The position numbers and the translations under genes were made by a program. The notes beneath the pieces are model-generated. The model did no database searches. It was not told where the DNA came from and saw only the letters and a program-made list of their open reading frames with translations. From a phage: DNA of 64,000 nucleotides. The stretch lies in sequence record PZ171035.1; one strand, given 5' to 3'. Of this stretch, positions 29,346 through 63,871 are shown one piece after another (position 1 is the first letter of the stretch; each line of letters begins with the position of its first letter).

Positions 29346-32300
29346 AGTTAGTAAGATTGAGCCACGGGTTCAGGGTATGAGCACGTAAGCCTTGACCGAA
29401 ACCGAAGGAGTAACCAAGATTGCCCTGTGCAGCAATACTAAAGATGTTGTCCTGAATAGGCAGGCCAACGTTACCAAACATGGTAGGGGTTGGGGCCAAC
29501 ATAGCCATAGCAGCATGAACTGGGTTATTACGAATCATGGACACTGCAACTTTTGCAGAACGAATCTTAAAGTTGTAGAACCACATCAGACCAACGCTTT
29601 CCATATACCCACGGAAACGACCAGGCAGACGGTCATAGTTAATGAACTCTTCCGTTACACGTCCCAGTGCTTCTTCGCGAGTCTTACCTTTACGCTGAGT
29701 TAGTTCATCATAGATGATTGCTTTAGCAATAAAGTCAGAGTACTCAACCGTCTTCTGGATACTCTGGAACAAAGCAGTATCCTTAGTGATAAGTGCATAA
29801 CGACCTGCGTTACGTACAGACTTAGGCAGCTTATCGGCTAGCTTATCCATATATTCGTGAAGTTTACCTTCAGTAATCAGAATGTCATCACGCCCAATAC
29901 CAGCATCTGCAATTGAAGAGAACTCACCAGCTTCCAATAGAGGCCAGATACTCAAACGCTTATGGCTATCCGTAATGGACTGAATCTCAGCCTTAAGTTT
30001 ACGAATCTGGTTCGGGTTAGTAGCTGCACGTAATTCTGCTTCTGCATCTACCTGACGCAGGCGAGATTTCAGGTACTGGTTAATCTCAGCAGTCTTCTGT
30101 GGAATGCTCTTAGCAATGTTCTTAACCGGTACACCACGAGCAACCATCTGGTAAAGGTTAGCCAGGAAGTTAACAGCAGGTACAACTACTGACTTAACCA
30201 CAATCAGAGTCTTAGCTTCTTTAACTAAGTTTTGAACCAGGTTCTCTCCACCCATTACATATTTATAAGCACGGTTACCGAAGACACCCAACATAGCTTT
30301 CTTGAAGGTATCCAGTGTTTCTGGGGACCAACGAGAATTACCAGACCAGGCATCACCAACGGAAGCTGCACGATAACCTAAGGCATCATTAAGCATGTCA
30401 CGACGTACCCACAACTCACCTGGACCAAACAGACTTTCTGCTTTCTGACGAGTTTCACTATTCATCAGCTTAAGTGCATCGGCAGTTACTGGGTCCAGTT
30501 TAGAACCAAGAAGGTTAACGTACTGGGACTTATTAGAAGCAGACATCTTAATGTCGTTCTCATACATGCTATGCAGGTTCTCAATTAGCATATCGTTGAA
30601 ACGCTGAGCCTTAGCCTCTTCTACCTGACGACCACGCCATACACCGATTGCACGAGCAAGATGGTTCTCACCTTCAATGTGCTTCAGCATGTTAGGGTCA
30701 ATAGATTGCTCGTAAGCAACTACATTACCATTAGCATCATATACAGGCAGCAGAGGTTCATTACCACGTTCACCACGAGCAAGTGCTTTAGTGATACGGT
30801 CTACAGAAGGCTTGTCAGTGATACGACCCGCTACCATGGTTCCCATCGTAAAGCCTGTACCAAGGTCTACACCACCAGCAGTATTTCGAACGTTCTGTAA
30901 GATACCCTGTGAGAATGGGGCCTGTGCCTGTACTGGTGCGAAGTAGTAGCTACGTGCTGGACCACGGTTAGCAGAGCTACCTTGATAAGTACCCAGACGT
31001 ACATAGGACTTCTCAATCAAATCACCAAACTGGCTATCTTCAGCAACAATCAGATTAACACCCTGTTTAGTCTCACTAGGGATATGCCCTTTGTACTGGT
31101 TCAGGGTTGCACGCATATCAGATTTGGCTTTAGCCATTTCATCTTTACGCTGACCAACCAGGTAAGAGGTGGCAAAGTCCATCCCATCAACTTCTGTCTG
31201 AGCCAGTGAAGATAACATCTCACGGTCGGACTTGTTCATTGCTTCCAGTGCATACAGGGTAATCAGTTTATCCAGTTGAGCTACATCTACAGTAGAGCGT
31301 GCAGCCTGACGTTCACCCAGCATACGGGAGATTGCAGTAGCATTACGCAGCAGGTTTTTACCGACAGTACCATTAATCATGTACTGAGCCAGTTGCTTAG
31401 ATTTACGGTTAATCAGAGGCCAGTTACGACCAGCTTGTTTCTGCAAATCTGCTTCCAGCTTATTCACTTCACGGTCAACAATCTTCTGGTCAGTCAGTAA
31501 GTCACGGATTTCAGCCAGTGACATAGTGTCACGCAGGACAGCTAAATCTGTTTTACCCATACCAGTATGCATTACTTTCCACTCATCATTAGTCAGCTTA
31601 CGGCTGAACTTAGATGCGATAGTAGTAGGCAGATGTTCACGGAACTGCTGACGGTCTGCCTGCACCTGTGCACGTACTGCTTTAATCAAATCGTATACAG
31701 AAGCATTGCTCTTAGTACGACCGGTTAAGTCATTAACCAGGTCATGGAAAGGTTGCCATACCTTACCCTGGTTCATTGCAGCCATAACACCTTCAGCTAC
31801 GATTGCACCATTCTTCTCTGTAGCAATAGCAGCTACCAGTTGTGCAGCATGAGCAGCACCTTTAACCAATGGATTATTGGTATTGGCTGCAACTTCACGA
31901 GCACCTTCCAAAGCACGGGTAGATAGTACATCAATAGAATCCACCAGATACTGGTTAGCACGGTCAATAGCATTACCAGTAGGAGTAGCAACGGAATCAT
32001 AGAAGGATTCTGCATTAAGACTGGTCTGCATAATCGTCTGAGCCAGTGCATCCATACCTTCCTGTACGTTAGTAGCTTTAGTATCACCTGCTACACGAGC
32101 ATTCAGACTAGCCATTGCAGCAGTACCAATGTTAGTCAGCATTGCATCAACGGTATTACCTGATTTCTTATCTGCTTTCATGACAGGAATGTCAGCCAGT
32201 ACTTTACGTACTTCTTCACTTACCATTGCCAGACCAACAAAGGTAGGCAGTAAAGAAGATCGACCTTGTGCATCAAACTCAATGTTGTTAGCACCCATGA

Positions 32301-51589: not shown

Positions 51590-52096
51590 TTATTCCTGTT
51601 CAAAAAGTTTACGGTCAGCCTGAATCTGTTTACCCAACTCAATTAGTTGGCTGTCACGGAGTCTAACAGTTGCCCGGAGTTCTTCAACCAAACGTCTGCC
51701 TTCTTCAAGACTGTTGTCGAGTCTGGCTGCATGGCTTGCAAGACTTCTGCACTCAAAGGTTCCGGCTTCGGCTTGACGTTTATATACCGATGCTCGTCTT
51801 TCAGACTGTTGCATCCGGCTGTCGTAATCACTGCTAACGCGAGCAAGCTCGCTTGCGTAATTACTCTCAGCCGTCTGCAACCGGGAAGTGAGTAACCCGA
51901 CTTCATAACTATGGTTTCTTTGGAGAGCATTGTATTTGTCCTGTAATTTTTGTGTTGCCTTTTGGTCTTCAATCTTTTGGTCATCCCATTTCTTTTGAAC
52001 AGTAGACTGTCCATTGGAGTTACCCCAAAAGTAAATGGTGGCCCCGAGGACCACCACCAGAAGATAAGGCCAACCCTTAGAGATTAGCATCTTCAT
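51590..52096 (-). CDS. i-spanin (Rz-like)
   Basis: N-terminal [18 protein letters not shown] followed by a long coiled-coil-like region; overlaps endolysin 3' end. Confidence 0.5.
51643..51906 (-). CDS. o-spanin (Rz1-like lipoprotein) embedded in the i-spanin gene in another frame
   Basis: [32 protein letters not shown] lipoprotein signal; short Pro-rich mature region CNSLK...PKPEP. Confidence 0.45.
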   Translation of the reverse strand: MKSGYSLPGCRRLRVITQASLLALAVITTAGCNSLKDEHRYINVKPKPEPLSAEVLQAMQPDSTTVLKKADVWLKNSGQLLDSVTAN

Positions 52097-52697
52097 TACA
52101 TGCCTCCAGTGGCACATTGCCTATTCGGTTAGCTACCCAACCATACGTAAAGTCTGGCATGTTTAATGAGGTGTAGTGGTTCAGTTGTTTGGCATCAAGT
52201 AGCTTAATCATTACCTGACATGCTGCAACTTTGCCTCGTTTTTTCTGTAATGCTTTATATGCATTAACAGTACTTACACCGACTTTACCATCAACCTGTA
52301 TTTTAGGGTAGTCTTTGCCATTGCGAGACATCTGCAACCACTTAGCCGGGCGAGTTACACCAGTGTTAACACCAGCGTCAACCAGCTTATGTGTTACAGC
52401 AGGAGATATATCAGCGAAGGCTACGAAGTTAGGCTTAAGAACGTAGTCATCAATGTATATCTCAGCAGCCATCTCTTTGGATAAACCTTTCATAGAACCA
52501 TCCCAACCATACTCAGTAGCCAAAACTTCTTTATGAGATTTAGCTACCGATTGGGTAATACCATGATTGGTTTCGCCACCTGGGTCACGGGGATTGTTTA
52601 CATAACCCCCTTCCATATAGAACACTGCCCCCAGGATAGCAGCGATAACCCCTCCCACTGCACCACCTTTCGCAGCAAGTTTCTGTTTAGCTTTCAT
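52077..52697 (-). CDS. N-acetylmuramidase endolysin (GH108 plus peptidoglycan-binding domain), SAR-type N-terminus
   Basis: MEGGYVNNPRDPGGETNHGIT (GH108 signature); N-terminal Gly/Ala-rich weakly hydrophobic segment; 206 aa. Confidence 0.7.
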   Translation of the reverse strand: MKAKQKLAAKGGAVGGVIAAILGAVFYMEGGYVNNPRDPGGETNHGITQSVAKSHKEVLATEYGWDGSMKGLSKEMAAEIYIDDYVLKPNFVAFADISPAVTHKLVDAGVNTGVTRPAKWLQMSRNGKDYPKIQVDGKVGVSTVNAYKALQKKRGKVAACQVMIKLLDAKQLNHYTSLNMPDFTYGWVANRIGNVPLEACNEDANL

Positions 52698-52947: not shown

Positions 52948-53261
52948 GCGAATATCTCCCGTCTTGCAGCAGCTAATACACCAATAATTGCACCTGTCCC
53001 AGCCCACACCCACTTACCGAAAATTCCAGCACCAACAACTTTATGCTTAATGGTGATGAACTCTTCAATAGTAGGTTCATTCTTAGCTAAGCTATCCTCC
53101 ACATTTTTTAGTCTATTACCTATGTCATTGATTGAATCCCGTAGTTCTGACAGAGTCTCCTCCAGTTTCTCACGGTCTTGTCTGTCTCTTGTCTGGTTCT
53201 CAAACAGAGTCTTCAATCGTTCCTCCAGTCTGACTAGGAGCAGTTCACCCGATTCATTCAT
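52932..53261 (-). CDS. lysis-cassette membrane protein (coiled coil plus C-terminal TM)
   Basis: 109 aa; C-terminal GAGIFGKWVWAGTGAIIGVLAA. Confidence 0.35.
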   Translation of the reverse strand: MNESGELLLVRLEERLKTLFENQTRDRQDREKLEETLSELRDSINDIGNRLKNVEDSLAKNEPTIEEFITIKHKVVGAGIFGKWVWAGTGAIIGVLAAARREIFAWFAG

Positions 53262-53469
53262 AATATTACCGTAGTTGTGTAGTTAGAATCCCCAATAGGG
53301 TCATATCATAAGATGACTCTTAGATAATACTTAGTAAGATGAGGTACATCCAGACATAGTGTCTGATATCAGCTCATGGTGGGTGGTATTCAGTTGGGTA
53401 TGTTTAATATATCCGAGTAAGTAATTACCCTAACAGCAGTATCAATTAGGGTAATGCAAACAGTAAACT

Positions 53470-53497
53470 CTATATAAGAAAAGGCCCGTTCGGGCCT
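53470..53497 (-). terminator. rho-independent terminator after tailspike 1
   Basis: AGGCCCG/CGGGCCT hairpin followed on the – strand by TTTTCTTATATA. Confidence 0.55.
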
Positions 53498-53502
53498 TTG
53501 TT

Positions 53503-55413
53503 TTAGTTAGAAATCTGATACGGAATGGTAACCCGCACACCAAACGTTGCTGCCTGGCTCCATGTGTTCGTCAAATGGACTCGCAGTTTATTGCTTGATA
53601 TTTGTTCTAATTGTATCTGGCATTGAGCTGTAGCAGCACTTCTTGTTGTAACAAAGGCCAGTGCTTCTGATATTTTTACAGGGTCAGTATACGTTATATC
53701 TTGGTAGGTATTCACACCAGCTACTACCGATGAAAACGTCAATGTATCGTTTTTAACGTTATTAAACGCCACAGACCGCTTACCCGGAACCACCATAAAC
53801 CCGGATGCCACGGTAGACGTTATTTCAGTGTTATTTGGAGTCAGAAAAGGGCAGCTCAATACACCGGAACCAGCAGTAGTATTATAATGAGTATCTATGA
53901 TCGAAATCGTAGTTATACGAAGAACAGATAATGGAACTTGATGTGATAACCAGTCAGACTCCATCAGCTTCGCTTTGAACTCAAGGTGATTAACAGCCCA
54001 CGCATCAATGGCGATGACGACGTTTTCTAAACCTTTCAGGTATATAGTACATGACGAATCGAAAAGTAAAGACCAGGCTGTTCCGGATACGATACGAGCG
54101 TAAGCGTACTTATTGTAATACGGATCACTTGGGGTTGCAGCATTTCCGCGTGGAGTTAAACCGTCGTATATTGACTGCGTATCAAAGTTCTCAAAGTAAC
54201 ACCCGTGGAACCCAAAGTTCTGATACCGCATATATGCAGCAGTATCTGAACCTACAATATAGTTCGTGAAGTTCTCGAAAGCGCAACCAAAGAAATTAAT
54301 TGGCCCATTACCAGCAGAGCCAGTCATCGGGAAAAATCTATTAAACGCTGCGGCACGACAACCAAAGAAGGAGGCGTTATAAGCTTGGTCAATTCCAACA
54401 CAATCTTTACATGCCAGCCATTCCGTCTGATGGAATTTACTATAAAAACCTCCTGCGACAGAAAATGGTAGGGCCAACCCCATAAATGTTACAAACGACG
54501 TCTGGATTGAACCGCCTGCACTGTATAACCCTTTTTGGGTTCCTATAACCCCCATAGAATAGGCTGGGATGCCTTTTACCAGTACATCCTTAAGGACAAT
54601 ATCCGCCTGTGTGCAAGAGATAGCATAATCATCGGCAACGTTACAGTATAATTGACTATGCGTGCTGGTGGGCACTTTGTTTGTCATGATTCCGGAATAA
54701 CCACGTATCTCTAACCGACGCCCTGTGAATGTGACTTGATTGTCAAGGCGCACAATACTTCCTGGTGGTATGGTTATGATAACGTGGGTAGCATCCGAGT
54801 TTAGTATTTGCTGGATGGCGGCGGAATCGTCTGCCACCCCGTCGCAAACTGCCCCGTACATTTGCGGGGTAACGGTAAAAATTCCATCCTGAACCGTTCC
54901 GCCCTGCGAAATACTAACCATAGACGCACCGGTGGAGGAAGCCAATTCATCTCTCAAATTGGGGTCGGTCTGTGGCTTCCAGTCCACATTACCAACAGGG
55001 TTGATTCCTGAGGTAATTGTTACAGGTAAAGAACCTAAGTAGGTGTAACCTATGCCATTATGGAACAATAACTCATTTCGTGTATTCACTACCAAACCAG
55101 TAGCAAACGAGTCGGATAGGCTCACGAACTCTCTACGTGTAGCAGCCAGTTCACCCAAATCAATTGTGCCTGCTGAATGATCCAGGACTGCATGTTCATT
55201 GAGGCTTACAGCAGTAGTTCCTGCCGGAAGTACAGGTAATGAGTAAGCACGCTGGGTAGATTTATCATAGATTACTTTGTAACCACCTAAGTCTACACCT
55301 ACAGAAAAGTAGACCACCTCATTCTGCTTAACACCAAACTTACGGGCAATTGCTTGCTTGTTGGTAAGAATACCAGTAGAGCCTTTACCACCTTGTGAGA
55401 ATAACTCGTTCAT
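53503..55413 (-). CDS. tailspike / depolymerase 1 (pectate-lyase-like beta-helix)
   Basis: 636 aa; MYGAVCDGVADDSAAIQQIL (pectate-lyase-type start); N-terminal attachment motif shared with the 1046-aa protein. Confidence 0.55.
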   Translation of the reverse strand: MNELFSQGGKGSTGILTNKQAIARKFGVKQNEVVYFSVGVDLGGYKVIYDKSTQRAYSLPVLPAGTTAVSLNEHAVLDHSAGTIDLGELAATRREFVSLSDSFATGLVVNTRNELLFHNGIGYTYLGSLPVTITSGINPVGNVDWKPQTDPNLRDELASSTGASMVSISQGGTVQDGIFTVTPQMYGAVCDGVADDSAAIQQILNSDATHVIITIPPGSIVRLDNQVTFTGRRLEIRGYSGIMTNKVPTSTHSQLYCNVADDYAISCTQADIVLKDVLVKGIPAYSMGVIGTQKGLYSAGGSIQTSFVTFMGLALPFSVAGGFYSKFHQTEWLACKDCVGIDQAYNASFFGCRAAAFNRFFPMTGSAGNGPINFFGCAFENFTNYIVGSDTAAYMRYQNFGFHGCYFENFDTQSIYDGLTPRGNAATPSDPYYNKYAYARIVSGTAWSLLFDSSCTIYLKGLENVVIAIDAWAVNHLEFKAKLMESDWLSHQVPLSVLRITTISIIDTHYNTTAGSGVLSCPFLTPNNTEITSTVASGFMVVPGKRSVAFNNVKNDTLTFSSVVAGVNTYQDITYTDPVKISEALAFVTTRSAATAQCQIQLEQISSNKLRVHLTNTWSQAATFGVRVTIPYQISN

Positions 55414-55433
55414 AAATACCTCTTTGTTTTTCT

Positions 55434-55457
55434 AGTAAAAACCCCTCCGGAGAGGGG
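55434..55457 (-). terminator. rho-independent terminator between the two tailspike genes
   Basis: CCCCTC-CGGA-GAGGGG followed on the – strand by TTTTACTAG. Confidence 0.5.
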
Positions 55458-55466
55458 AATATTTAA

Positions 55467-58400
55467 TTAGCTTGCAATATACACGCCTGCATTAGTATAT
55501 CCACTCAGTACTCTTGTTTTGAAAGTTGTATCAACAGTACTCGATGCAGGAGTAGTTCCAAGAACACAGGATTGAATTCGACCGACAACCTGAACACCGG
55601 AACCAAAGTCAGTACCCATAGTAGTATCAGGGGAAGCGATAGGTTTATCAGAATGCGAGTCCCAACGAAAAACACATCCAACAAAGTCAAACAAACCAGA
55701 TCGGTATGTAGCCCCTGATCCTCCCACACCAAATAACTCACAAGATGTGAATGTTATTTTATTGTACGAGGTGTTACCTGTACGTGTAACAGCATTATCA
55801 AAAAAACCCTTGTTCATACGTTGGTTACTAACAGCAATAGTCATATCAGTCCAAGCAGAAGTACATGGAATTACATGAGCACTGCGTTCAATATGAATTT
55901 CCTGTTTAGTACCATACGAAGTAAACTTGAATCCATCCACACGAGCAGCATTCAACGAATCCTGGTTAATACGTCCAAGACGTTCCAGCTCAATATTACT
56001 GACCTTCACAATATACCGGGAACCTGAACGGTTAATTGCGTTCATTTGAGCAGAAGTAATGCTGGTATAGTTGCGTTCGTTGTAGACAACACGATAATTA
56101 GTATTACCTAAATAGCGATTACTACCACCACCAAAAGTGACACCATCTACGGTATGGAACTGAGGAAGAACCTGATACTGCTCAAAATTACTTCCCCCAG
56201 ACACACCAAGGTTAATGGTGCGAATGTCCATGTTGGGATTGGTATTCGCAATATCGTACTCTACATTGTTTATAAAGATGTCCGGGCAATATCCCAGCAT
56301 TGCATGGTCTGCCTTAGGCTCCATGGCAGTAACAACACTGTGACCAGTACAACCAGAGTGTAGAGTTACCTTAAGGTTTTTAACAATAACCTTACCATCC
56401 CAGGAGTTATTATAATCATACTTAGTAGACCAGAAATCTTCCGATGCCTTATCTAAACTAAGGTTATGATGACAATCCAGGGCAGTCCATGTTCCCCAGC
56501 CCATACCATTACAATGGTTGGTTATAGTGCATCCTTGGATAAATACATCAGATACACCGCAGTGACCACCAACACTACGCAGTTTACTATCGCGTACGGT
56601 AAGCCCACGATAATAATTACCATCTATACCGGACCAACCAGACAGTGAGTTTATGCGTTCAGCTGTTACACTAGAGGCTTGGGTAAGCATTACGGTATAG
56701 CCTCCCCCATACGTTTCAGGGAAGTTTGCATCCAAACTATAATCAGTAATATAAGACCGAGCACAACGGTTAAATTCAATAAAGCTCATAGCAAAGCCAT
56801 TATTCTTAGAAGCAACATTATTACCAAGAATATTAACGTTATTGCGTTCGCAGAATATAACCCAACCAATACCAGCACCATCCAGGATAATGTTTGGAGC
56901 TTTAAATGTAAGTTCTTTAACAAATGGTTTGTAACTTACAGTTGGTGCAGAAGTAAAAGAATGGTAATGATTATAGCTTAATGCCCCTTTCTGGTCAGTC
57001 TCGTTAACCTCAATTTTGTATTGAGGTGAACCTGCTGCTGACGCATTTGCCTTACGCTGCAACCAAACATCTGTGGATTCAAAAGAAAGCCACCCGGATA
57101 GCCCAGTTACATCTATAGATTTTTTACCACGAGAAAAAGTTTCAGATGCAAACTGTGCGGTTACATCCCGAGATTCCTGAGGAATACGGAAAAGAATACT
57201 GGTATTGTTCCAGTTCTCACTATTGCCATCATTGGTAGTACAGATAATGGTTGCTGCACTAAAGTCAGCAGGTACTTCTATATCAATAGGGTCAGTAGGA
57301 TGAGCATCCAGTACATAAGTACCAGAGGCGCTAACGGAAAGTCCTTTGGCCTTAGCCTCTGCAAGCATAGCCTTAAAAACTGCTGTGTGGTTGGTTTCTG
57401 TACCATTACTAAACATTTCAGGGGTAAGAATAACACCCTTATTATTTAATAATTCATCGACTGAACCAGGTAACGGAACCAGGTCTACGGTGATGCTACC
57501 CGGATTGTAAGTAAGTTTCCCATTGGATACCGAACCAATGTAAATGTTGGTTGGTAATGGTGGCAAACCATAAGCCTTCTGGGCAGCTACGTCATAAATA
57601 ATCTTCTTGTCATTAAGGTACTGGGTAGTGTTAGTACTCAGAATGACGTCAGTATCTTTGACATTAGACGAGCGTGCCACTTCCTGAATGGTTCGGTCTG
57701 ACATAATTAATGTCTCAGACTCGCCACCAATAGTAATAATAAGACGATCATTGGTTGCCAATGGCTCGGTCAACATAATACGTTGGTTATCAGCATCAAC
57801 GGTATAAGAGTTTTCTGACAGACCAGCATAGTAACGAGCACCATTCTTATAAATAGCAGGTATAGACTGGAAGGTATAAGGAATCTGAATTACCTGTTCG
57901 CCCCCGGAAGCATAACCACCATTGTATAACCAGTTAATCTGAACCCAGTCATTAACATTAGGATTATCAGGTACAGCAGGAGTTCCAGTTAAAAGGATTA
58001 TTACTTCATCACCTTCCTCAAGAGGTTGAGCCAGGGTTACTGACAGACTATCCACGTTAAACTCAAAACCACGCCCTACATACTGCATATTGCCGTTAAT
58101 GACGATAAAAGGTACACCTACTGTTCCATCCGGTACGTTAATGGAAGTTTCACCACCAGTAGCAGAACCGTTTGCGTATACCCAAGGAATATAAGCACCC
58201 CCACCAGAGGAAGTATCACCACTATTGGAACCAGATGTAGCAACAGTGATCCATGAACCAGTTGCAGTAGTATCGTTAGGTATAATGCCGGTACGGTCAT
58301 CTTCTACATAAAGATAGTCAGTTACCTGACGGTCACTCGCACGGGAGAACCCGTAGATACGAGCATACTTAGCATTAGTAGTGAGGGCTTTAAGTTCTGT

Positions 58401-58607
58401 CTCAGACTGTACACCAATAACCATTCCATACTGATTCAGAAGATCATACAGAAGTTTAAGGTTACCCAAGTTACAGTAAACAGTACGAACCACATGGTAA
58501 GCATTACCAAGCAGTGCATCTACCATTGGATCATTAGAACTGTTCTGACAGTAAGGATTGGACCAATCCTGACTTGCATCAAAGGGGGTATGTGCGTTCA
58601 TCGCCAT
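55467..58607 (-). CDS. tailspike / receptor-binding protein 2 (virion-anchored, beta-helix)
   Basis: 1046 aa; internal KIIYDVAAQKAYGLPPLP motif shared with tailspike 1; repeated Asn/Gly-rich beta-strand pattern. Confidence 0.55.
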   Translation of the reverse strand: MAMNAHTPFDASQDWSNPYCQNSSNDPMVDALLGNAYHVVRTVYCNLGNLKLLYDLLNQYGMVIGVQSETELKALTTNAKYARIYGFSRASDRQVTDYLYVEDDRTGIIPNDTTATGSWITVATSGSNSGDTSSGGGAYIPWVYANGSATGGETSINVPDGTVGVPFIVINGNMQYVGRGFEFNVDSLSVTLAQPLEEGDEVIILLTGTPAVPDNPNVNDWVQINWLYNGGYASGGEQVIQIPYTFQSIPAIYKNGARYYAGLSENSYTVDADNQRIMLTEPLATNDRLIITIGGESETLIMSDRTIQEVARSSNVKDTDVILSTNTTQYLNDKKIIYDVAAQKAYGLPPLPTNIYIGSVSNGKLTYNPGSITVDLVPLPGSVDELLNNKGVILTPEMFSNGTETNHTAVFKAMLAEAKAKGLSVSASGTYVLDAHPTDPIDIEVPADFSAATIICTTNDGNSENWNNTSILFRIPQESRDVTAQFASETFSRGKKSIDVTGLSGWLSFESTDVWLQRKANASAAGSPQYKIEVNETDQKGALSYNHYHSFTSAPTVSYKPFVKELTFKAPNIILDGAGIGWVIFCERNNVNILGNNVASKNNGFAMSFIEFNRCARSYITDYSLDANFPETYGGGYTVMLTQASSVTAERINSLSGWSGIDGNYYRGLTVRDSKLRSVGGHCGVSDVFIQGCTITNHCNGMGWGTWTALDCHHNLSLDKASEDFWSTKYDYNNSWDGKVIVKNLKVTLHSGCTGHSVVTAMEPKADHAMLGYCPDIFINNVEYDIANTNPNMDIRTINLGVSGGSNFEQYQVLPQFHTVDGVTFGGGSNRYLGNTNYRVVYNERNYTSITSAQMNAINRSGSRYIVKVSNIELERLGRINQDSLNAARVDGFKFTSYGTKQEIHIERSAHVIPCTSAWTDMTIAVSNQRMNKGFFDNAVTRTGNTSYNKITFTSCELFGVGGSGATYRSGLFDFVGCVFRWDSHSDKPIASPDTTMGTDFGSGVQVVGRIQSCVLGTTPASSTVDTTFKTRVLSGYTNAGVYIAS

Positions 58608-59308
58608 CCTCGTTGTTCAAATTTAGTTTCGGTAATTGAAATACTTCCATTAGCCAGGTCGTAATCAACAACCTCACCACAGATGCTTTCATATGTTTGC
58701 AGATACTCTGCTGCTTTAGCGTTAGCTTCGGGAGTATTCAAACCAGTGTGGTAACGGTAACCCACCCAGTTATGAAGTGCCGTCATTAGCGTATCAGCTA
58801 AATCAACTTCCTGTTCTTCATCACCCGTAAGAACTGGGTGCTTAGCTTGATACGTTACGTTAAGTGCCTCAAAGTGTCGAGGTCGCATACACTGAATAGT
58901 ATCAGGCCGTGGAGTGAAAATAGCACGAGGGTCTGAGTCGTCGTTCAGTCTACGTCGATTCCCAGAGTTATCAAACACATTTAGGATTTTAATAACATCA
59001 TCCTGGAAAGGCTTCATGAACCCATCCATGATGTACGGATATTGAACCTCAAGGGTAGGCTTAGTAAATCTGGAGTAAGCATATTTGGATTGAAGAGGAT
59101 AATCAGTACGACCTTCCTTCATCTCCACAATGCAGCTATTTGTCTTAAGAGGGAAACGACTATACAGTCGTACCAGTCCTTCATTAATAGCTGCCAGTAT
59201 CTCCGGCTTACTATCTGGTTCAATATCCAGTCTGTCATCCGTGACTGAACCAGTACCTTTTAAGGTACTTAGTGCCAAGCCACGGTATACTTCCGATAAT
59301 TTCTGCAT
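58598..59308 (-). CDS. tail/structural protein
   Basis: 236-aa ORF between terminase and tailspike genes. Confidence 0.4.
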   Translation of the reverse strand: MQKLSEVYRGLALSTLKGTGSVTDDRLDIEPDSKPEILAAINEGLVRLYSRFPLKTNSCIVEMKEGRTDYPLQSKYAYSRFTKPTLEVQYPYIMDGFMKPFQDDVIKILNVFDNSGNRRRLNDDSDPRAIFTPRPDTIQCMRPRHFEALNVTYQAKHPVLTGDEEQEVDLADTLMTALHNWVGYRYHTGLNTPEANAKAAEYLQTYESICGEVVDYDLANGSISITETKFEQRGWR

Positions 59309-59314
59309 GGTTCC

Positions 59315-60925
59315 TCACACAATGTATGAACGTAGTGGATTAACACTATCTTCTTCTTCCTCATCCCACATTGGGTCACCCTTGTTATCCACCAAAGTCA
59401 TACCTGCTTGTGGTTTCCAAGGATTGAGATAACCCAGCATGGAGATAGTATCAATACAGTCATCCTTACCTTTAATCCCATTAATGGTAGCTAGTTTAAT
59501 CTGGCCCATGAACAGACCCATAATAGTCGTATCTCTCAACTCTTCTGGGAAGTACATCTTACCAGCTTTGAACCATGGAACTACCAGGTTAAAGCGTGAC
59601 AGTTTAGAGGTTACAGGACGGATGCCTGGCTTACCACCCTCAGAGGATGCAAAGTTAAAGAAGACATTACGGTTAATCATTTCTTTCTGAAGGAGTGAGA
59701 TAAATCCATTTTGTTGTCCTGTAATTTCGACACCAACGTTTTGTGGTTGGTATTCCTGAACCAGACGGAAGAGGTCGTCAAAGTTCTTATCCATAAGCTG
59801 ACGATTAGCCACACCATCAACCCAGAACCAATCTCCATTAGAACTATAAGCCCAAACTGATATGACACTGTAGTCACTGGTCTGTTTCTCCGAAGTAGCA
59901 AAGTCAGTTGTAATATAATAGTTGTAGCAGGACTTCATCCTTAACAGTTGCTGTCTGCTGTACCATTTAATCTCACTATCCTGAACAAGGCGTTCATCTT
60001 CAGAACTAATACGAAGCATAAGTTCCTGGTAGAAGCCAGCCAGCTTACCAGTCTTAACTGCCATGTCATATTGGGCTTTGATGTAGTCGTAGGAGAAACG
60101 GTCATCCCATGCACCCTGAAATTCTTCTCTACTACAGGGGAACTTCTCACATACAGGCCATACGTTTACATCCCATGCACCAGACTCTACTGCTTCAATG
60201 ATAATGTCTTCCTTATTAAAGGGAGTACCATTGAAGATTACTTTACGACGAGTAGGGTCAAGAGCATGGTTCACACCTTTATAAACAGTATCTTTAATAG
60301 CTTCCATGCTAGTCTTAGAGTTAGCATCACCATCACTAATCAAGTCATCCAGTACACAGAGTGTTGGACGTTTACCATATATCTTCGTACCACGAAGACC
60401 TGTCTTAGCACCAAACAACTTAACACCAAGTCGATGTCCTTCTACATTACGGAACTCCAGTAGGTTATCCGTAAAGGTAGCTTCAGGTATCCATTGCTGA
60501 AGGAACTCACTATTCTTGTAACGAAATTCAATGTTCTTACGTGCAGACTTAGCACCGTTATCCATTGAGTCAGATACGTAAATCATTCCTTCTACTTTAC
60601 CCAGGCTAGGTAAGTGACCAAACACTGCCAGAAACAAAGTAAAGTATTCCATGAATACAGCAGTCTTACCTGCACCACGGAAGCACAGGTTAACTACATA
60701 CTGGTTCGGACTAATCATCTTATCCAGCATCTTCAGGTGAACTGGAGGTGTTTTGTTGGATTCACCTTCTTTGCCATTAACCAACTTAATAAAGTTGGCA
60801 AAGGTAAGAGCAAACTGACTAGGAACATAGTTAGATGAATTAAGGTGGGAGTAATCCACCTGGTCCAGCCATTCATCTAGTTCCTGTTTAATTAACTCAG
60901 ACATCTGTAATGTCCTCATCTGCAC
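59315..60925 (-). CDS. terminase large subunit
   Basis: 536 aa; Walker A CFRGAGKT, Walker B LCVLDDL; first large gene of the late operon. Confidence 0.65.
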   Translation of the reverse strand: MQMRTLQMSELIKQELDEWLDQVDYSHLNSSNYVPSQFALTFANFIKLVNGKEGESNKTPPVHLKMLDKMISPNQYVVNLCFRGAGKTAVFMEYFTLFLAVFGHLPSLGKVEGMIYVSDSMDNGAKSARKNIEFRYKNSEFLQQWIPEATFTDNLLEFRNVEGHRLGVKLFGAKTGLRGTKIYGKRPTLCVLDDLISDGDANSKTSMEAIKDTVYKGVNHALDPTRRKVIFNGTPFNKEDIIIEAVESGAWDVNVWPVCEKFPCSREEFQGAWDDRFSYDYIKAQYDMAVKTGKLAGFYQELMLRISSEDERLVQDSEIKWYSRQQLLRMKSCYNYYITTDFATSEKQTSDYSVISVWAYSSNGDWFWVDGVANRQLMDKNFDDLFRLVQEYQPQNVGVEITGQQNGFISLLQKEMINRNVFFNFASSEGGKPGIRPVTSKLSRFNLVVPWFKAGKMYFPEELRDTTIMGLFMGQIKLATINGIKGKDDCIDTISMLGYLNPWKPQAGMTLVDNKGDPMWDEEEEDSVNPLRSYIV

Positions 60926-61757: not shown

Positions 61758-62048
61758 TTGAGAATCTATATGAGAGTCCATGACTCTAAAGATGAATACG
61801 CAGAGGTAGACCACACCGAAGCTGGTATTCTTTCAGATGATATTATCATCACACATGATGAAGATACCTATCATGAATTAGCTGGGATGATGCTTTTAGA
61901 GAATCGTCCGGGCATTAACATCCTGGAACCAAGAGAAACTTACTCTTTAGAAAAACGTTTTTCAGCTCTCGTGTTCTTCACAAAATTACCTCATAGTGTC
62001 TCCGTCAGGCGAAGCAAAGACAGTGTTCGGATGACGGTGACGATGTGA
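61758..62048 (+). CDS. small protein, paralog family member A
   Basis: TTG start with AAGGAG RBS; YHELAGMMLLEN...INILEP core motif. Confidence 0.45.
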   Translation: MRIYMRVHDSKDEYAEVDHTEAGILSDDIIITHDEDTYHELAGMMLLENRPGINILEPRETYSLEKRFSALVFFTKLPHSVSVRRSKDSVRMTVTM

Positions 62049-62187
62049 TTAGTCATGCCGCCTAGTAGACAGTGGCGGTACTCGTAAAGAGTTAATAACT
62101 TCTACAGTCAGGGTTGCCCGGCTCCTTTCCTACCTAGTAGGCTAACGATACACATGTATCTAGGGTGATGAACTGGCCCGTGATAGA

Positions 62188-62230
62188 AAACGGTAAGGGG
62201 TAGAGTCGAGAGGCTCTACCCCATTTCTTT
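62188..62230 (+). terminator. rho-independent terminator
   Basis: GGGGTAGAG-TCGAGAGG-CTCTACCCC followed by ATTTCTTTTTT. Confidence 0.55.
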
Positions 62231-62248
62231 TTTAGGAGGTATGCAAAT

Positions 62249-62644
62249 ATGAGCATCTACGCTTTTGATATTGATATTACCGGTGTACTTCGTAAGCAGG
62301 AACCCTACTACCTAGGGGAACCAGAGATGGTAAGTAAGTTCTTATCTAAACATGCAGTCTTCCTACCAGACTGTGAAGAATCCCATGAGATAGTTGGTTC
62401 ATTCTTCTTAAGTAACCTGCAAATCAATACACGTATACTTACTGAACCAGTTGTGTATGACCTTACTGAGTATGCAGACTTCGAAACATTCTTCCCAGGA
62501 GTTAGGTTCTATAAAGTACCTGGCTGGGAAATGATTGTTGAACATAACCTCTTTAATAAAACACTTTCCATTTACTTCAGACCTATCCCTAAAGGAAGGA
62601 AAATCCATCATGAAATTCATACTGACCGCCCCCAGTTTTATTAA
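62249..62644 (+). CDS. small protein, paralog family member B
   Basis: AGGAGG RBS; AVFLPDCEESHEIVGSFFLSN...RILTEP. Confidence 0.5.
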   Translation: MSIYAFDIDITGVLRKQEPYYLGEPEMVSKFLSKHAVFLPDCEESHEIVGSFFLSNLQINTRILTEPVVYDLTEYADFETFFPGVRFYKVPGWEMIVEHNLFNKTLSIYFRPIPKGRKIHHEIHTDRPQFY

Positions 62645-62924
62645 AGGGGAATCCTTATACACAACAGACTTTACTTTAGAAGAAGTCATAGACAGCAACC
62701 CTCAGCATGTAATTCTGGTTCCTACCCTAGAGGACTACCATGAAGTAAGGGGTCAACTCTTCTTAGCAGGTAATGATCGTAAGGTTGTGTGTATCATTCC
62801 TCCTTCTGTCTATACCAATAGTGGTGCGTATGATGCTCTACCTTTTATGTTGGTATCCGAGGACTACCAATGGGATAGTCGCTACGAGAATGAGGAATAC
62901 CGCTACTACTATGTAAGGAAGTAA
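62610..62924 (+). CDS. small protein, paralog family member C
   Basis: ATG 62610 with GGAAGGA RBS; VILVPTLEDYHEVRGQLFLAGN...VVCIIPP. Confidence 0.5.
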   Translation: MKFILTAPSFIKGESLYTTDFTLEEVIDSNPQHVILVPTLEDYHEVRGQLFLAGNDRKVVCIIPPSVYTNSGAYDALPFMLVSEDYQWDSRYENEEYRYYYVRK

Positions 62925-62927
62925 GAT

Positions 62928-63245
62928 ATGCACTTCTATGGTTTGAGCTATCGTAGTACCAACCCCCTTAATCTGGGGGTAGGTAAATCCCATTGGATGA
63001 GAATAAGCACGCCTATGACCATGTACTACGAACAATGTGAAAAAGCGGATGAGTTCATCGGAACCTGTCTATTATTAGGCGTACCTATTACCTTTATTAA
63101 AATAGATACTTCCATTGAAGTTCCAGAGAATGTAGTTGTATACATCTACTCTTCCTGTGAACCTCTGATAGAAACTACCCTTACGGGTAGACTTATTACC
63201 CTCTACCCTTCTACCTCATATTTATCTAGCGACGAGAGTCTCTAA
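62928..63245 (+). CDS. small protein, divergent paralog D
   Basis: AAGGAAG RBS; EFIGTCLLLGVP weakly matches the family core. Confidence 0.4.
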   Translation: MHFYGLSYRSTNPLNLGVGKSHWMRISTPMTMYYEQCEKADEFIGTCLLLGVPITFIKIDTSIEVPENVVVYIYSSCEPLIETTLTGRLITLYPSTSYLSSDESL

Positions 63246-63529
63246 TGGTTATCAGTAAAATTTATCCAGAGCCTAATGAGGAAAATTACATCCTCCATAA
63301 AGAAATAGCTGACCTGAATGCTGATGTACTTATCCTGGTTCCAGATGAACAGTCTCTACATGTGATACAAGGATTACTCTTCCTATACAATAAGAATTCG
63401 GTAGTACATCTACTTGAACCAGAAACACCTATGTCCTGGCAGGGTAGCTTTAGTCCTTGGCATCTTAATACAGACAAGTACATCCTTTCATTCGAGGGTA
63501 ACACTCCCATCTATAAGGAAAGGAACTAA
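63245..63529 (+). CDS. small protein, paralog family member E
   Basis: LILVPDEQSLHVIQGLLFLYN...VVHLLEP. Confidence 0.5.
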   Translation: MVISKIYPEPNEENYILHKEIADLNADVLILVPDEQSLHVIQGLLFLYNKNSVVHLLEPETPMSWQGSFSPWHLNTDKYILSFEGNTPIYKERN

Positions 63530-63532
63530 AAC

Positions 63533-63871
63533 ATGAACGTTAAGCTCTTGGGAATGAGTGGTACTGACTTACTGCATTATTCCTCTGTACCAGAAAAAGC
63601 AATCATCCATATTATGACCTATGGGAGTTCTACACTAATAATGGAACCAGGAGAGTTAGCAGACTTTGCACAGGGGCATAAACTTATTACTAACAGTAAT
63701 GCAGAGATAGTTATCCTGCAAAACGGTGAGTCAGTCTCCATACCATTGGGAGATTATGCTCATGTGTTTATCAAAGATGCTACCGTAAGGAATAGTAGTG
63801 GTAACCCTAACCATCCTGACTATTACTCTGGCATAGCACGTATCATCACCAGAACCTCCCCTCCTATTTAA
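63533..63871 (+). CDS. small protein, possible distant paralog F
   Basis: AAGGAA RBS; 112 aa. Confidence 0.4.
   Translation: MNVKLLGMSGTDLLHYSSVPEKAIIHIMTYGSSTLIMEPGELADFAQGHKLITNSNAEIVILQNGESVSIPLGDYAHVFIKDATVRNSSGNPNHPDYYSGIARIITRTSPPI

Follow-up and report, generated by a model that had tools for sequence, protein, structure and literature searches.

The locus raises the question of how two neighboring tailspike genes, whose products share a short motif and differ otherwise, could serve a single phage tail. The window, i.e., the whole 64-kb stretch of DNA that was analyzed, is, judged by its nucleotide identity, the genome of a Gamaleyavirus, a G7C-like, N4-like podophage of Escherichia coli (Schitoviridae): positions 30,000 to 53,000 are 94-95% identical to PhAPEC7, KKP 3715 and other Gamaleyaviruses (23 kb compared). 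Of the 5.3-kb spike region, only about one-third is covered by similarity to GenBank phage DNA. Three genes are considered here:

53503-55413, minus strand: small secondary tailspike, 636 aa, 68.6 kDa, in the position of G7C gp63.1 / Gamaleyavirus RBP2 (open reading frame and homology)
55467-58607, minus strand: large tailspike, 1046 aa, 113.8 kDa, of the G7C gp66 / Gamaleyavirus RBP1 type (open reading frame and homology)
58598-59308, minus strand: tail adaptor gene, 236 aa (PF24175 SU10_adaptor, E = 1.2e-6; phrog_2125, E = 1e-91)

The gene order is terminase, adaptor, large spike, small spike, gp63-like gene, holin, endolysin, spanin and portal, identical to that of the annotated relatives ZQ2, UE-S5a, EC1-UPM, PGN829.1, St11Ph5 and E20. 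The adaptor gene lies immediately upstream of the large-spike gene, the start of which is overlapped by the adaptor 3' end over 10 nt, and it keeps this position in all annotated relatives. By gene order, the two spike genes are the standard Gamaleyavirus host-recognition module, flanked by the tail adaptor gene on one side and by the lysis genes on the other. A first, sequence-only reading of the locus had taken both products for tailspike-type receptor-binding proteins, which homology to solved tailspikes bears out; the two reading frames, of 636 and 1046 aa, and the presence of the motif in both, were also confirmed.

The motif, K(V/I)IYD..Q(R/K)AY(S/G)LP.LP, is 18 residues long. It occupies residues 46-63 of the small spike (55225-55278, KVIYDKSTQRAYSLPVLP) and residues 335-352 of the large one (57552-57605, KIIYDVAAQKAYGLPPLP), each time within a larger domain:

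55120-55413, minus strand: D1 head domain of the small spike, residues 1-98, a putative docking module assigned by homology; contains KVIYDKSTQRAYSLPVLP
57444-57722, minus strand: internal D1-type head domain of the large spike, residues 296-388, assigned by BLASTP against small-spike residues 8-98; contains KIIYDVAAQKAYGLPPLP

In BLASTP, residues 8-98 of the small spike align with residues 294-388 of the large spike (31% identity, E = 6e-7), and no further significant similarity between the two proteins is found outside this D1 alignment, so that their description as otherwise different holds. A match over 18 residues is short, and a chance or low-complexity coincidence, absent from relatives, would be conceivable on that ground; its probability is negligible in view of the 90-aa alignment and of the reciprocal detection in relatives, and this explanation was rejected. 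A phmmer search with either of the ~100-aa segments recovers the other spike class in all relatives' loci examined, and the domain is also present in an Ackermannviridae phage. Across 12 relatives' loci, every small spike has D1 N-terminally, and every large spike carries it at approximately residues 290-390; when both classes are aligned across all relatives, the motif is the best-conserved block, and it is visible in the solved homologues TSP1, B2 gp48, Moo19 gp82 and B2 gp49. These statements on conservation are based on the relatives' loci: a search with a two-row D1 alignment yielded only 31 short fragments out of 66 candidates and was discarded, and a scan of IMG/VR with the large-spike N-terminus gave only five loci.

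Judging from these alignments, the motif is the conserved core of the ~90-aa D1 "head" domain of CBA120/G7C-type tailspikes, and it occurs in both spikes because both carry this domain. The D1 of the small spike is basic (pI 9.3 for the N-terminal 45 aa) and that of the large spike acidic (pI 4.5). As the same motif is found in a basic and in an acidic D1, it is more suggestive of a fold core than of a determinant of specificity. The proposal that the motif acts as a shared attachment signal is hence not supported: it is the core of a whole homologous domain, N-terminal in one protein and internal in the other.

The remaining domains of the large spike are arranged as follows:

58233-58607, minus strand: N-terminal virion anchor and linker, residues 1-125 (homology to 9lc0 and to the Moo19 and B2 spikes)
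57984-58190, minus strand: first T4 gp10-like domain (XD2-equivalent), residues 140-208 (match to CBA120 TSP4-N)
57723-57938, minus strand: second T4 gp10-like domain (XD3-equivalent), residues 224-295 (internal duplication)
55470-57443, minus strand: receptor-binding and presumed depolymerase domain, predicted right-handed parallel beta-helix, residues 389-1046

The protein belongs to phrog_12242 (tail protein, E = 3e-266). Residues 1-378 match Moo19 gp82 (9d80, residues 1-379; E = 1.3e-154), and the N-terminus also matches B2 gp49 (9d83, residues 6-364; E = 1.7e-131); by analogy with these gp66-type N-termini, the larger protein is likely the virion-anchored spike, as had been suggested. Residues 3-78 match the N-terminus of the "60 kDa protein" 9lc0 (E = 8e-5), and residues 10-74 of the homologous Moo19 and B2 spikes have been modelled in tail cryo-EM maps (PMC11654681). 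Anchoring to the tail is thus expected, on the model of these phages, to involve residues ~3-78. Further on, residues 129-210 match residues 254-335 of CBA120 TSP4-N (XD3 of TSP4; 7rej/7rfo; E = 2e-13), and the two XD domains form a tandem duplication (33% identity, E = 5e-12).

Pfam contains nothing that matches the N-terminal region of either spike at E-values up to 10; this includes PF18668 (Tail_spike_N, the TSP1/Gp66 N-terminal domain) in residues 1-175 of the small and 1-400 of the large spike. PF18668 is matched by other carriers of the same receptor-binding domains. Despite this miss, homology to the solved TSP1 N-terminus is strong.

Beyond D1, the small spike consists of two parts:

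54904-55119, minus strand: D2 head domain and neck, residues 99-170 (the CBA120 TSP1 alignment extends to residue 222)
53506-54903, minus strand: receptor-binding domain, probably a beta-helix, and C-terminal beta-sandwich, residues 171-636 (N-cap, model and relatives)

The N-terminus matches CBA120 TSP1 (4oj5) over residues 1-222 (E = 3e-63) and G7C gp63.1 (4qnl, residues 1-149; E = 4e-52), and residues 1-180 align to residues 1-187 of B2 gp48 (9d84; E = 3e-56). The protein starts with a TSP1/gp63.1-type D1-D2 head, and BLASTP detects no similarity to residues 1-290 of the large spike.

That the spikes have nothing obvious in common but the motif, and that it is strongly conserved in both classes, could also mean that both attach independently to the same tail site, in parallel and not as a branch. 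This arrangement is very improbable and was rejected, since the small spike has no counterpart of large-spike residues 1-125, the region seen bound in the Moo19 and B2 tails. In the large spike, moreover, the motif is internal, coming after 330 residues, and the secondary spikes of G7C, as far as its complex is described in the sources cited below, and of CBA120 bind XD3 of the primary spike rather than the virion.

Very likely, then, the two genes encode a G7C-type branched module, in which the small spike is docked on an anchored large spike. By analogy with the spikes of G7C, B2, Moo19 and CBA120, this agrees with the dual-spike design of N4-like coliphages invoked in the sequence-only reading. 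The large spike would be the primary spike, its first ~75-125 residues fixing the trimer to the tail beside the adaptor encoded upstream; the anchor would be followed by the gp10-like domains (140-208 and 224-295), the D1-type head (296-388) and the beta-helical receptor-binding/depolymerase domain (389-1046). The small spike would be the secondary spike, devoid of a virion anchor and made of the D1-D2 head (1-170) and a separate receptor-binding domain that is probably beta-helical. Through its D1 trimer, which is basic, it would dock on a gp10-like trimer of the large spike, at the acidic face left free there; by analogy, this trimer would be that of XD3. Each tail appendage would thus branch in two and have two glycan specificities.

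The choice of large-spike residues 224-295 (the XD3-equivalent) as the docking platform is an analogy with tested homologues, in which the platform of the anchored spike is the T4 gp10-like XD3, not its own D1, and the partner docks via D1 (PMC8825819). TSP1 of CBA120 binds TSP4 XD3 with its D1 through charge complementarity, and binding of G7C gp63.1 is reported there to require gp66 XD3 (PMC8825819). The charge pattern of the present spikes fits docking, with pI values of 4.05 for XD2, 4.59 for XD3 and 9.3 for the N-terminus of the small-spike D1. Both XD domains being acidic, charge does not tell which one is used. Complexes of this kind are known from the co-purification of B2 gp48 and gp49 (PMC11654681) and, for the CBA120 spikes, from analytical ultracentrifugation (PMC8825819).

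The closest parallel is the gp66/gp63.1 complex of G7C (Prokhorov et al. 2017, as summarized in PMC8825819 and PMC10408124), which has the same genus-level backbone and gene order. As described there, gp66 resembles the large spike in having a virion anchor, a pair of gp10-like XD domains and a receptor-binding domain of its own, and gp63.1 resembles the small spike in its TSP1-like D1-D2 head. The receptor-binding domains of G7C, on the contrary, are unrelated to both of those found here. Among the proteins of Shigella phages Moo19 (gp82, 9d80/9d81) and B2 (gp48/gp49 complex, 9d83/9d84; PMC11654681), gp82 and gp49 align with the N-terminal region of the large spike and gp48 with that of the small one. 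However, Moo19 gp82 has an esterase head in place of the beta-helix domain, and B2 gp49 (410 aa) is an adaptor without a large C-terminal domain, whereas the large spike carries a beta-helix domain of 658 aa. TSP1-TSP4 of the Kuttervirus CBA120 share with the present pair the D1-D2 heads, a helical neck and gp10-like XD domains, but this phage is a myovirus with four spikes and another baseplate anchor, compared to two spikes, a podovirus tail and an N4 gp66-type anchor.

For the C-terminal domain of the large spike (658 aa), the predicted model has a beta-helix fold; Pfam gives no match in this receptor-binding domain. The small spike had been credited with a pectate-lyase-type start. PF12708 is indeed found at residues 186-218 (E = 0.0015), at 18.8 bits, below the cut-off of 27, and this N-cap is matched by all five members of the receptor-binding-domain family (best E = 6e-6); the assignment is thus retained as a sub-threshold one. 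A profile of the same domain, searched against PDB sequences, finds only the ~40-aa "YGAxGDGxxDD" N-cap, in beta-helix proteins. AlphaFold2 gave a poor model of the full protein from an eight-row alignment (pLDDT 50, pTM 0.40); all Foldseek matches of this model are beta-helix tailspikes, with TM-scores of only 0.15-0.29. Structure prediction, which had been proposed as a check, thus yields a beta-helix for the large spike and, for the small one, a low-confidence model with low-scoring matches of that type. Taken with the N-cap, these matches suggest that the small-spike receptor-binding domain is probably a beta-helix. Gp63.1 is described as an esterase in the accounts of G7C, in contrast to the pectate-lyase-type N-cap and probable beta-helix found here. 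A G7C-like esterase was considered for the small spike and rejected: there is no SGNH/esterase signal but a PF12708 N-cap and beta-strand-rich models. Enzymatic activity would be expected from homologous systems; the beta-helix depolymerases compared (Klebsiella phage K64-ORF41 (8x8m), AP22 gp54, the HK620 tailspike and K1/K5 lyases) have only 8-14% sequence identity.

Each spike gene is followed by a terminator-like hairpin:

55442-55457, minus strand: hairpin between the spike genes, 6-bp stem, TCCG loop, then TTTTT (CCCCTCTCCGGAGGGG followed by TTTTT)
53480-53499, minus strand: hairpin directly after the small-spike stop codon, 8-bp stem, GAAC loop, then TTCTT (AAAGGCCCGAACGGGCCTTT followed by TCTT)

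Both have the form of intrinsic terminators, a GC-rich hairpin with a T-run downstream of a stop codon, and both rank among the best coding-strand sites of an 11-kb scan, which detected 16 sites (7.3 +/- 2.4 in shuffled sequences). The first is followed by a conserved leader, TAGAAAAACAAAGAGGT, and the small-spike ATG; an equivalent precedes the same leader in six of seven GenBank relatives, with different stems. Relatives keep the second as well, either with an altered loop or with another stem. The claim of a terminator after each gene therefore stands, at the level of a hairpin and T-run behind each stop codon whose structure is kept in relatives. No credible Rfam match was found at 53200-55520.

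Differential expression of the spikes had been read from these elements. The small gene starts 28 nt downstream of the first hairpin; as the interval showed no sigma-70-like promoter, this gene would be expressed by read-through. Such a dependence, together with a one-to-one complex, which would speak against strong attenuation, suits an explanation in which the hairpins act mainly as stabilizers of RNA 3' ends and/or as recombination joints of the cassettes, and do not set differing expression. It is further favored by the position of the small-spike hairpin exactly at the edge of a variable cassette, and by the presence of a GC-rich hairpin and T-run behind tailspike genes in every context examined, T7-like and P22-like ones included. 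We consider this a serious but somewhat less probable account: the elements have the canonical form of intrinsic terminators, the conservation of structure while stems change fits a selected RNA function, termination included, and partial termination could still tune the ratio of the spikes. By analogy with homologous systems, a termination effect would be expected.

To judge from their distribution in databases, both receptor-binding domains are cassettes that are rare and exchanged horizontally. The boundaries are located at ~53501-54909 (small spike) and ~55457-57500 (large spike). Conserved sequence forms the edges: on one side the leader and the region coding for D1/D2, on the other the terminator hairpin. 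The small-spike cassette (53501-54909) recurs with 86-90% DNA identity in two unrelated phage contigs, and similarity to the relatives stops at ~54938. The same spike pair is present in metagenome contigs L016-L018, and the same large spike is accompanied by a different small spike in L014 and L015. Elsewhere, both domains are fused to T7-fiber, P22 head-binding or other N-termini. Over 99% of its length, the small receptor-binding domain, for example, shares 50% identity with the tailspike of Lederbergvirus E212 and phage EC.P3, which has a P22-type head-binding N-terminus instead of a D1-D2 head and belongs to a temperate P22-like phage.

These two tailspikes are the matches at 50% identity to the small domain in GenBank phage records; the large domain is at most 29% identical to proteins of Vibrio, Aeromonas and Bacillus phages in these records, and its family counts 76 representatives at E <= 1e-3 among 1.84 billion. 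In a search for the host serogroup via prophage tailspikes, none of 5,426 complete E. coli genomes matches the large domain, and four of them give weak partial matches of 254 nt to the small one. Because of this rarity among GenBank phages and E. coli genomes, the two domains probably define uncharacterized O- or K-antigen specificities. The large one, from a small uncharacterized family, may represent a new glycan specificity.

A bolder and rather doubtful possibility is that D1 is a universal "plug", D1 and its receptor-binding cassette being used either on their own, as the secondary spike, or joined to the end of an adaptor resembling B2 gp49. Three hints point this way: the small spike of St11Ph5 has a large-type D1; B2 gp49 ends shortly past its D1-type region; and the sequences on either side of the small-spike cassette, non-coding sequence among them, recur in the Ackermannviridae phage A221 at ~85% DNA identity. 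If this were true, the large spike would be an adaptor-spike fusion, cassettes would move between both positions and between podovirus and myovirus families, and the leader and terminator sequences would be recombination joints.

The architecture is that of the known G7C/CBA120 branched-spike design, of which both structures and binding experiments are available; novelty is confined to the specificities. What is of practical interest is the pair of receptor-binding domains, for which GenBank phage records offer distant counterparts at best, and their clean cassette boundaries are useful as coordinates for receptor-binding-domain swaps in host-range engineering.

Positions 30000-53000 of the window are, along their whole length, 94-95% identical to Gamaleyavirus genomes, among them PhAPEC7, KKP 3715, ST4 and SP5M, which belong to the G7C-like group of N4-like phages (Schitoviridae, Enquatrovirinae). 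Read along the minus strand, a small terminase-like gene is followed by the large terminase, a 236-aa adaptor (PF24175), the large spike, the small spike, a 109-aa gp63-like gene, the holin, the GH108 endolysin, the Rz/Rz1 spanins and the portal. The annotations of ZQ2, UE-S5a, EC1-UPM, PGN829.1, St11Ph5 and E20 follow this order too. Both tailspike ORFs proposed by the sequence-only reading are present, and the terminators placed after them correspond to terminator-like sites: each stop codon is directly followed by a GC-rich hairpin and a T-run.

55467-58607, minus strand: large spike (1046 aa); its residues 296-388 form a D1-type domain that holds the motif shared with the small spike
55457-55442, minus strand: hairpin after the large spike
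53503-55413, minus strand: small spike (636 aa)
53499-53480, minus strand: hairpin after the small spike
53424-53455, minus strand: second, longer inverted repeat, ATTACCCTAA N12 TTAGGGTAAT, with a stem of ~10-11 bp
51590-52117, minus strand: Rz-like spanin gene, with an out-of-frame ORF embedded at 51643-52014 (minus strand)

The ORF embedded in the spanin gene includes a lipobox-like ...ITTAGC..., as expected for an Rz1 o-spanin; its equivalent in St11Ph5 is annotated as gp60.1 inside gp60.2. At the genome end, six small ORFs of 94-131 aa run along the plus strand (61758-63871). Several carry a weak motif, (I/V)(I/L)LVP.E..(Y/L)HE..G..FL.N, which suggests tandem paralogous genes; pairwise identity to the first ORF is low (13-26%).

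Solved structures match the first part of the large spike: residues 1-378 correspond to Moo19 gp82 (9d80, E = 1.3e-154) and to B2 gp49 (9d83, E = 1.7e-131), and a shorter stretch, residues 3-78, to the N-terminal end of the '60 kDa protein' 9lc0. The XD3 part of CBA120 TSP4-N (7rej, E = 2e-13) has its counterpart in residues 129-210, XD standing for T4 gp10-like domains. This gp10-like domain is duplicated, the second copy (224-295) being 33% identical to the first (E = 5e-12). For residues 389-1046, neither a Pfam match nor a PDB sequence match was found.

The N-terminal part of the small spike is, judged by sequence, a D1-D2 head plus neck in the CBA120 nomenclature (PMC8825819): residues 1-222 match CBA120 TSP1 (4oj5, E = 3e-63), residues 1-180 B2 gp48 (9d84, E = 3e-56) and residues 1-148 G7C gp63.1 (4qnl, E = 4e-52). 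The C-terminal 466 residues do open with the predicted pectate-lyase-type start, a YGAxxDGxxDD N-cap typical of pectate-lyase-like beta-helices, to which the PDB profile matches of this receptor-binding domain are restricted. PF12708 is matched below threshold by the small spike (E = 0.0015), and by five out of five members of its receptor-binding-domain family (best E = 6e-6). The AF2 model, of poor quality (pLDDT 50), has many short strands; its Foldseek matches are all beta-helix tailspikes, at TM-scores of only 0.15-0.29. A beta-helix is thus likely but not established.

The shared motif reads KVIYDKSTQRAYSLPVLP at residues 46-63 of the small spike and KIIYDVAAQKAYGLPPLP at 335-352 of the large spike. 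The two proteins had been described as otherwise different, and BLASTP found no further significant similarity outside one segment; this segment is, however, longer than the motif, as small spike 8-98 aligns with large spike 294-388 (31% identity, E = 6e-7). With either D1 segment as query, phmmer detected D1 in 12/12 relatives' loci, where it occupies roughly residues 290-390 of the large spike. The nine small spikes found in these loci all carry it N-terminally, and three tailspikes of A221, an Ackermannviridae phage, have it as well. The motif block, YKVIYDK.TQRAYSLP in small spikes and KK(V/I)(I/V)Y(D/S)...Q..Y.(L/I)P.LP in large ones, is the best-conserved stretch of the D1 alignment, and it is also seen in the solved TSP1, B2 gp48, Moo19 gp82 and B2 gp49 sequences; a chance match is therefore ruled out. 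It is not the free-standing attachment signal first proposed, being instead the conserved core of a shared D1 domain. Because the large spike has the motif too, in its own D1, which is internal and acidic (pI 4.5), a role as fold or trimerisation core is more plausible than one as docking determinant. In St11Ph5, residues 7-97 of the small spike gp63.1 carry a D1 nearer to the large-spike type (E = 2e-21) than to the small-spike type (E = 1.5e-17), suggestive of D1 exchange between the two positions.

The spike pair is of the G7C/CBA120-type branched tailspike design, so that the earlier interpretation stands for the system but not for the detail of the motif. As PMC8825819 relates, citing Prokhorov 2017, G7C gp66 and gp63.1 assemble into a stable two-branched complex in which gp66 XD3, not XD2, is required for gp63.1 binding. 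In CBA120, the D1 of the TSP1 head binds TSP4 XD3, its positive N-terminal face complementing the negative face of the XD3 trimer (PMC8825819). B2 gp48 co-purifies with gp49 in a complex, and for the spikes of Moo19 and B2 the tail reconstructions resolve residues 10-74 (PMC11654681). The first 45 residues of the small spike have a pI of 9.3, and the XD domains of the large spike pIs of 4.05 and 4.59. From these homologue experiments, the close D1 match to TSP1 and the pI contrast, we infer that the large spike would be anchored to the tail through its N-terminus, and that the D1 trimer of the small spike would dock onto a gp10-like trimer of the large one, XD3 by analogy. Enzymatic activity would likewise be assigned by analogy.

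In an 11-kb scan for terminator-like sites, which gave 16 sites vs. 7.3 ± 2.4 in shuffles, both hairpins rank among the best on the coding strand. The inter-gene hairpin is identical in L014 and has a related, longer stem in L016 (both metagenomic Gamaleyavirus contigs), and in 6/7 GenBank relatives a hairpin with a different stem precedes the conserved leader TAGAAAAACAAAGAGGT. The one after the small spike is also kept in relatives, with altered loops or stems; hairpins of this kind come after tailspike genes in all contexts examined. Between the first hairpin and the start of the small gene, 28 nt further downstream, no sigma-70-like promoter was found, so that this gene would be expressed by read-through. 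The hairpins may tune the spike ratio, stabilise the RNA or merely mark cassette joints. The second inverted repeat lies ~25 nt beyond the small-spike terminator, inside a 240-nt intergenic region (53262-53502), and is kept in ZQ2, EC1-UPM and metagenomic contigs. High conservation extends over the rest of the intergenic sequence as far as the gp63-like gene. An Rfam search of 53200-55520 gave no credible match. Bp4 and UE-S5a have an additional opposite-strand ORF in this intergenic region.

Megablast of 53400-58700 against GenBank phage records covered at most 34% of the query. By local blastn, similarity to GenBank relatives is kept in the downstream intergenic region and at the start of each spike gene (leader plus ~105-160 codons for the small spike, ~340-365 codons for the large one); the remainder is replaced. 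The best GenBank phage relative of the small receptor-binding domain is the Lederbergvirus E212 tailspike (50% identity); those of the large one are Vibrio, Aeromonas and Bacillus phage proteins (21-29%). Complete E. coli genomes gave weak partial matches or none. In a collection of 5.8 billion proteins, the small domain has 7 clusters of relatives and the large one 15, with varying N-termini: PF18668 heads, T7 tail-fibre (PF03906), P22 head-binding (PF09008) and tail-collar fibre (PF12571) domains. An exhaustive HMMER search found 76 representatives of the large domain at E ≤ 1e-3. The cassettes, at up to 83-90% DNA identity, also occur in T7-like contigs (L020, L022), a P22-like contig (L019) and another phage (L021), confirming that receptor-binding domains are exchanged between unrelated phages.

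Within Gamaleyavirus, metagenomic contigs L016-L018 carry the same spike pair at ~95% identity. The L016 scaffold (ENA ERZ28619831) is 142,545 bp, about twice the ~72 kb of a Gamaleyavirus genome, which may reflect a concatemer or a duplicated assembly. Contigs L014 and L015 keep the large spike (its receptor-binding domain is 98% identical in protein, and 55096-59400 is 95.8% identical in DNA) and pair it with another small spike, of 705 aa. The breakpoint, at 55096, coincides with the D1/D2 boundary of the small spike, near codon 105. The module of Bp4 (L008, 1609-6494) has three genes: a large-type protein of 600 aa that resembles large spikes only as far as the end of the D1-type domain, a 304-aa protein whose annotation gives similarity to a Det7 tailspike N-terminus, and a tailspike of 704 aa.

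The small-spike cassette is flanked on either side by DNA 84-85% identical to that of Escherichia phage A221 (L013), a myovirus of the Aglimvirinae: the terminator region (53374-53515) on one side and the D1-D2 head, leader and upstream hairpin (54938-55469) on the other. This points to a recent exchange, as far as sequence can tell, of whole spike cassettes with their non-coding flanks between podovirus and myovirus families. The branched design itself is already well described, and what is new here is the pair of receptor-binding domains; the modularity of the spikes fits the description of the Gamaleyavirus RBP1 and RBP2 positions, those of the large and small spike, as horizontal transfer hot spots (PMC10408124).
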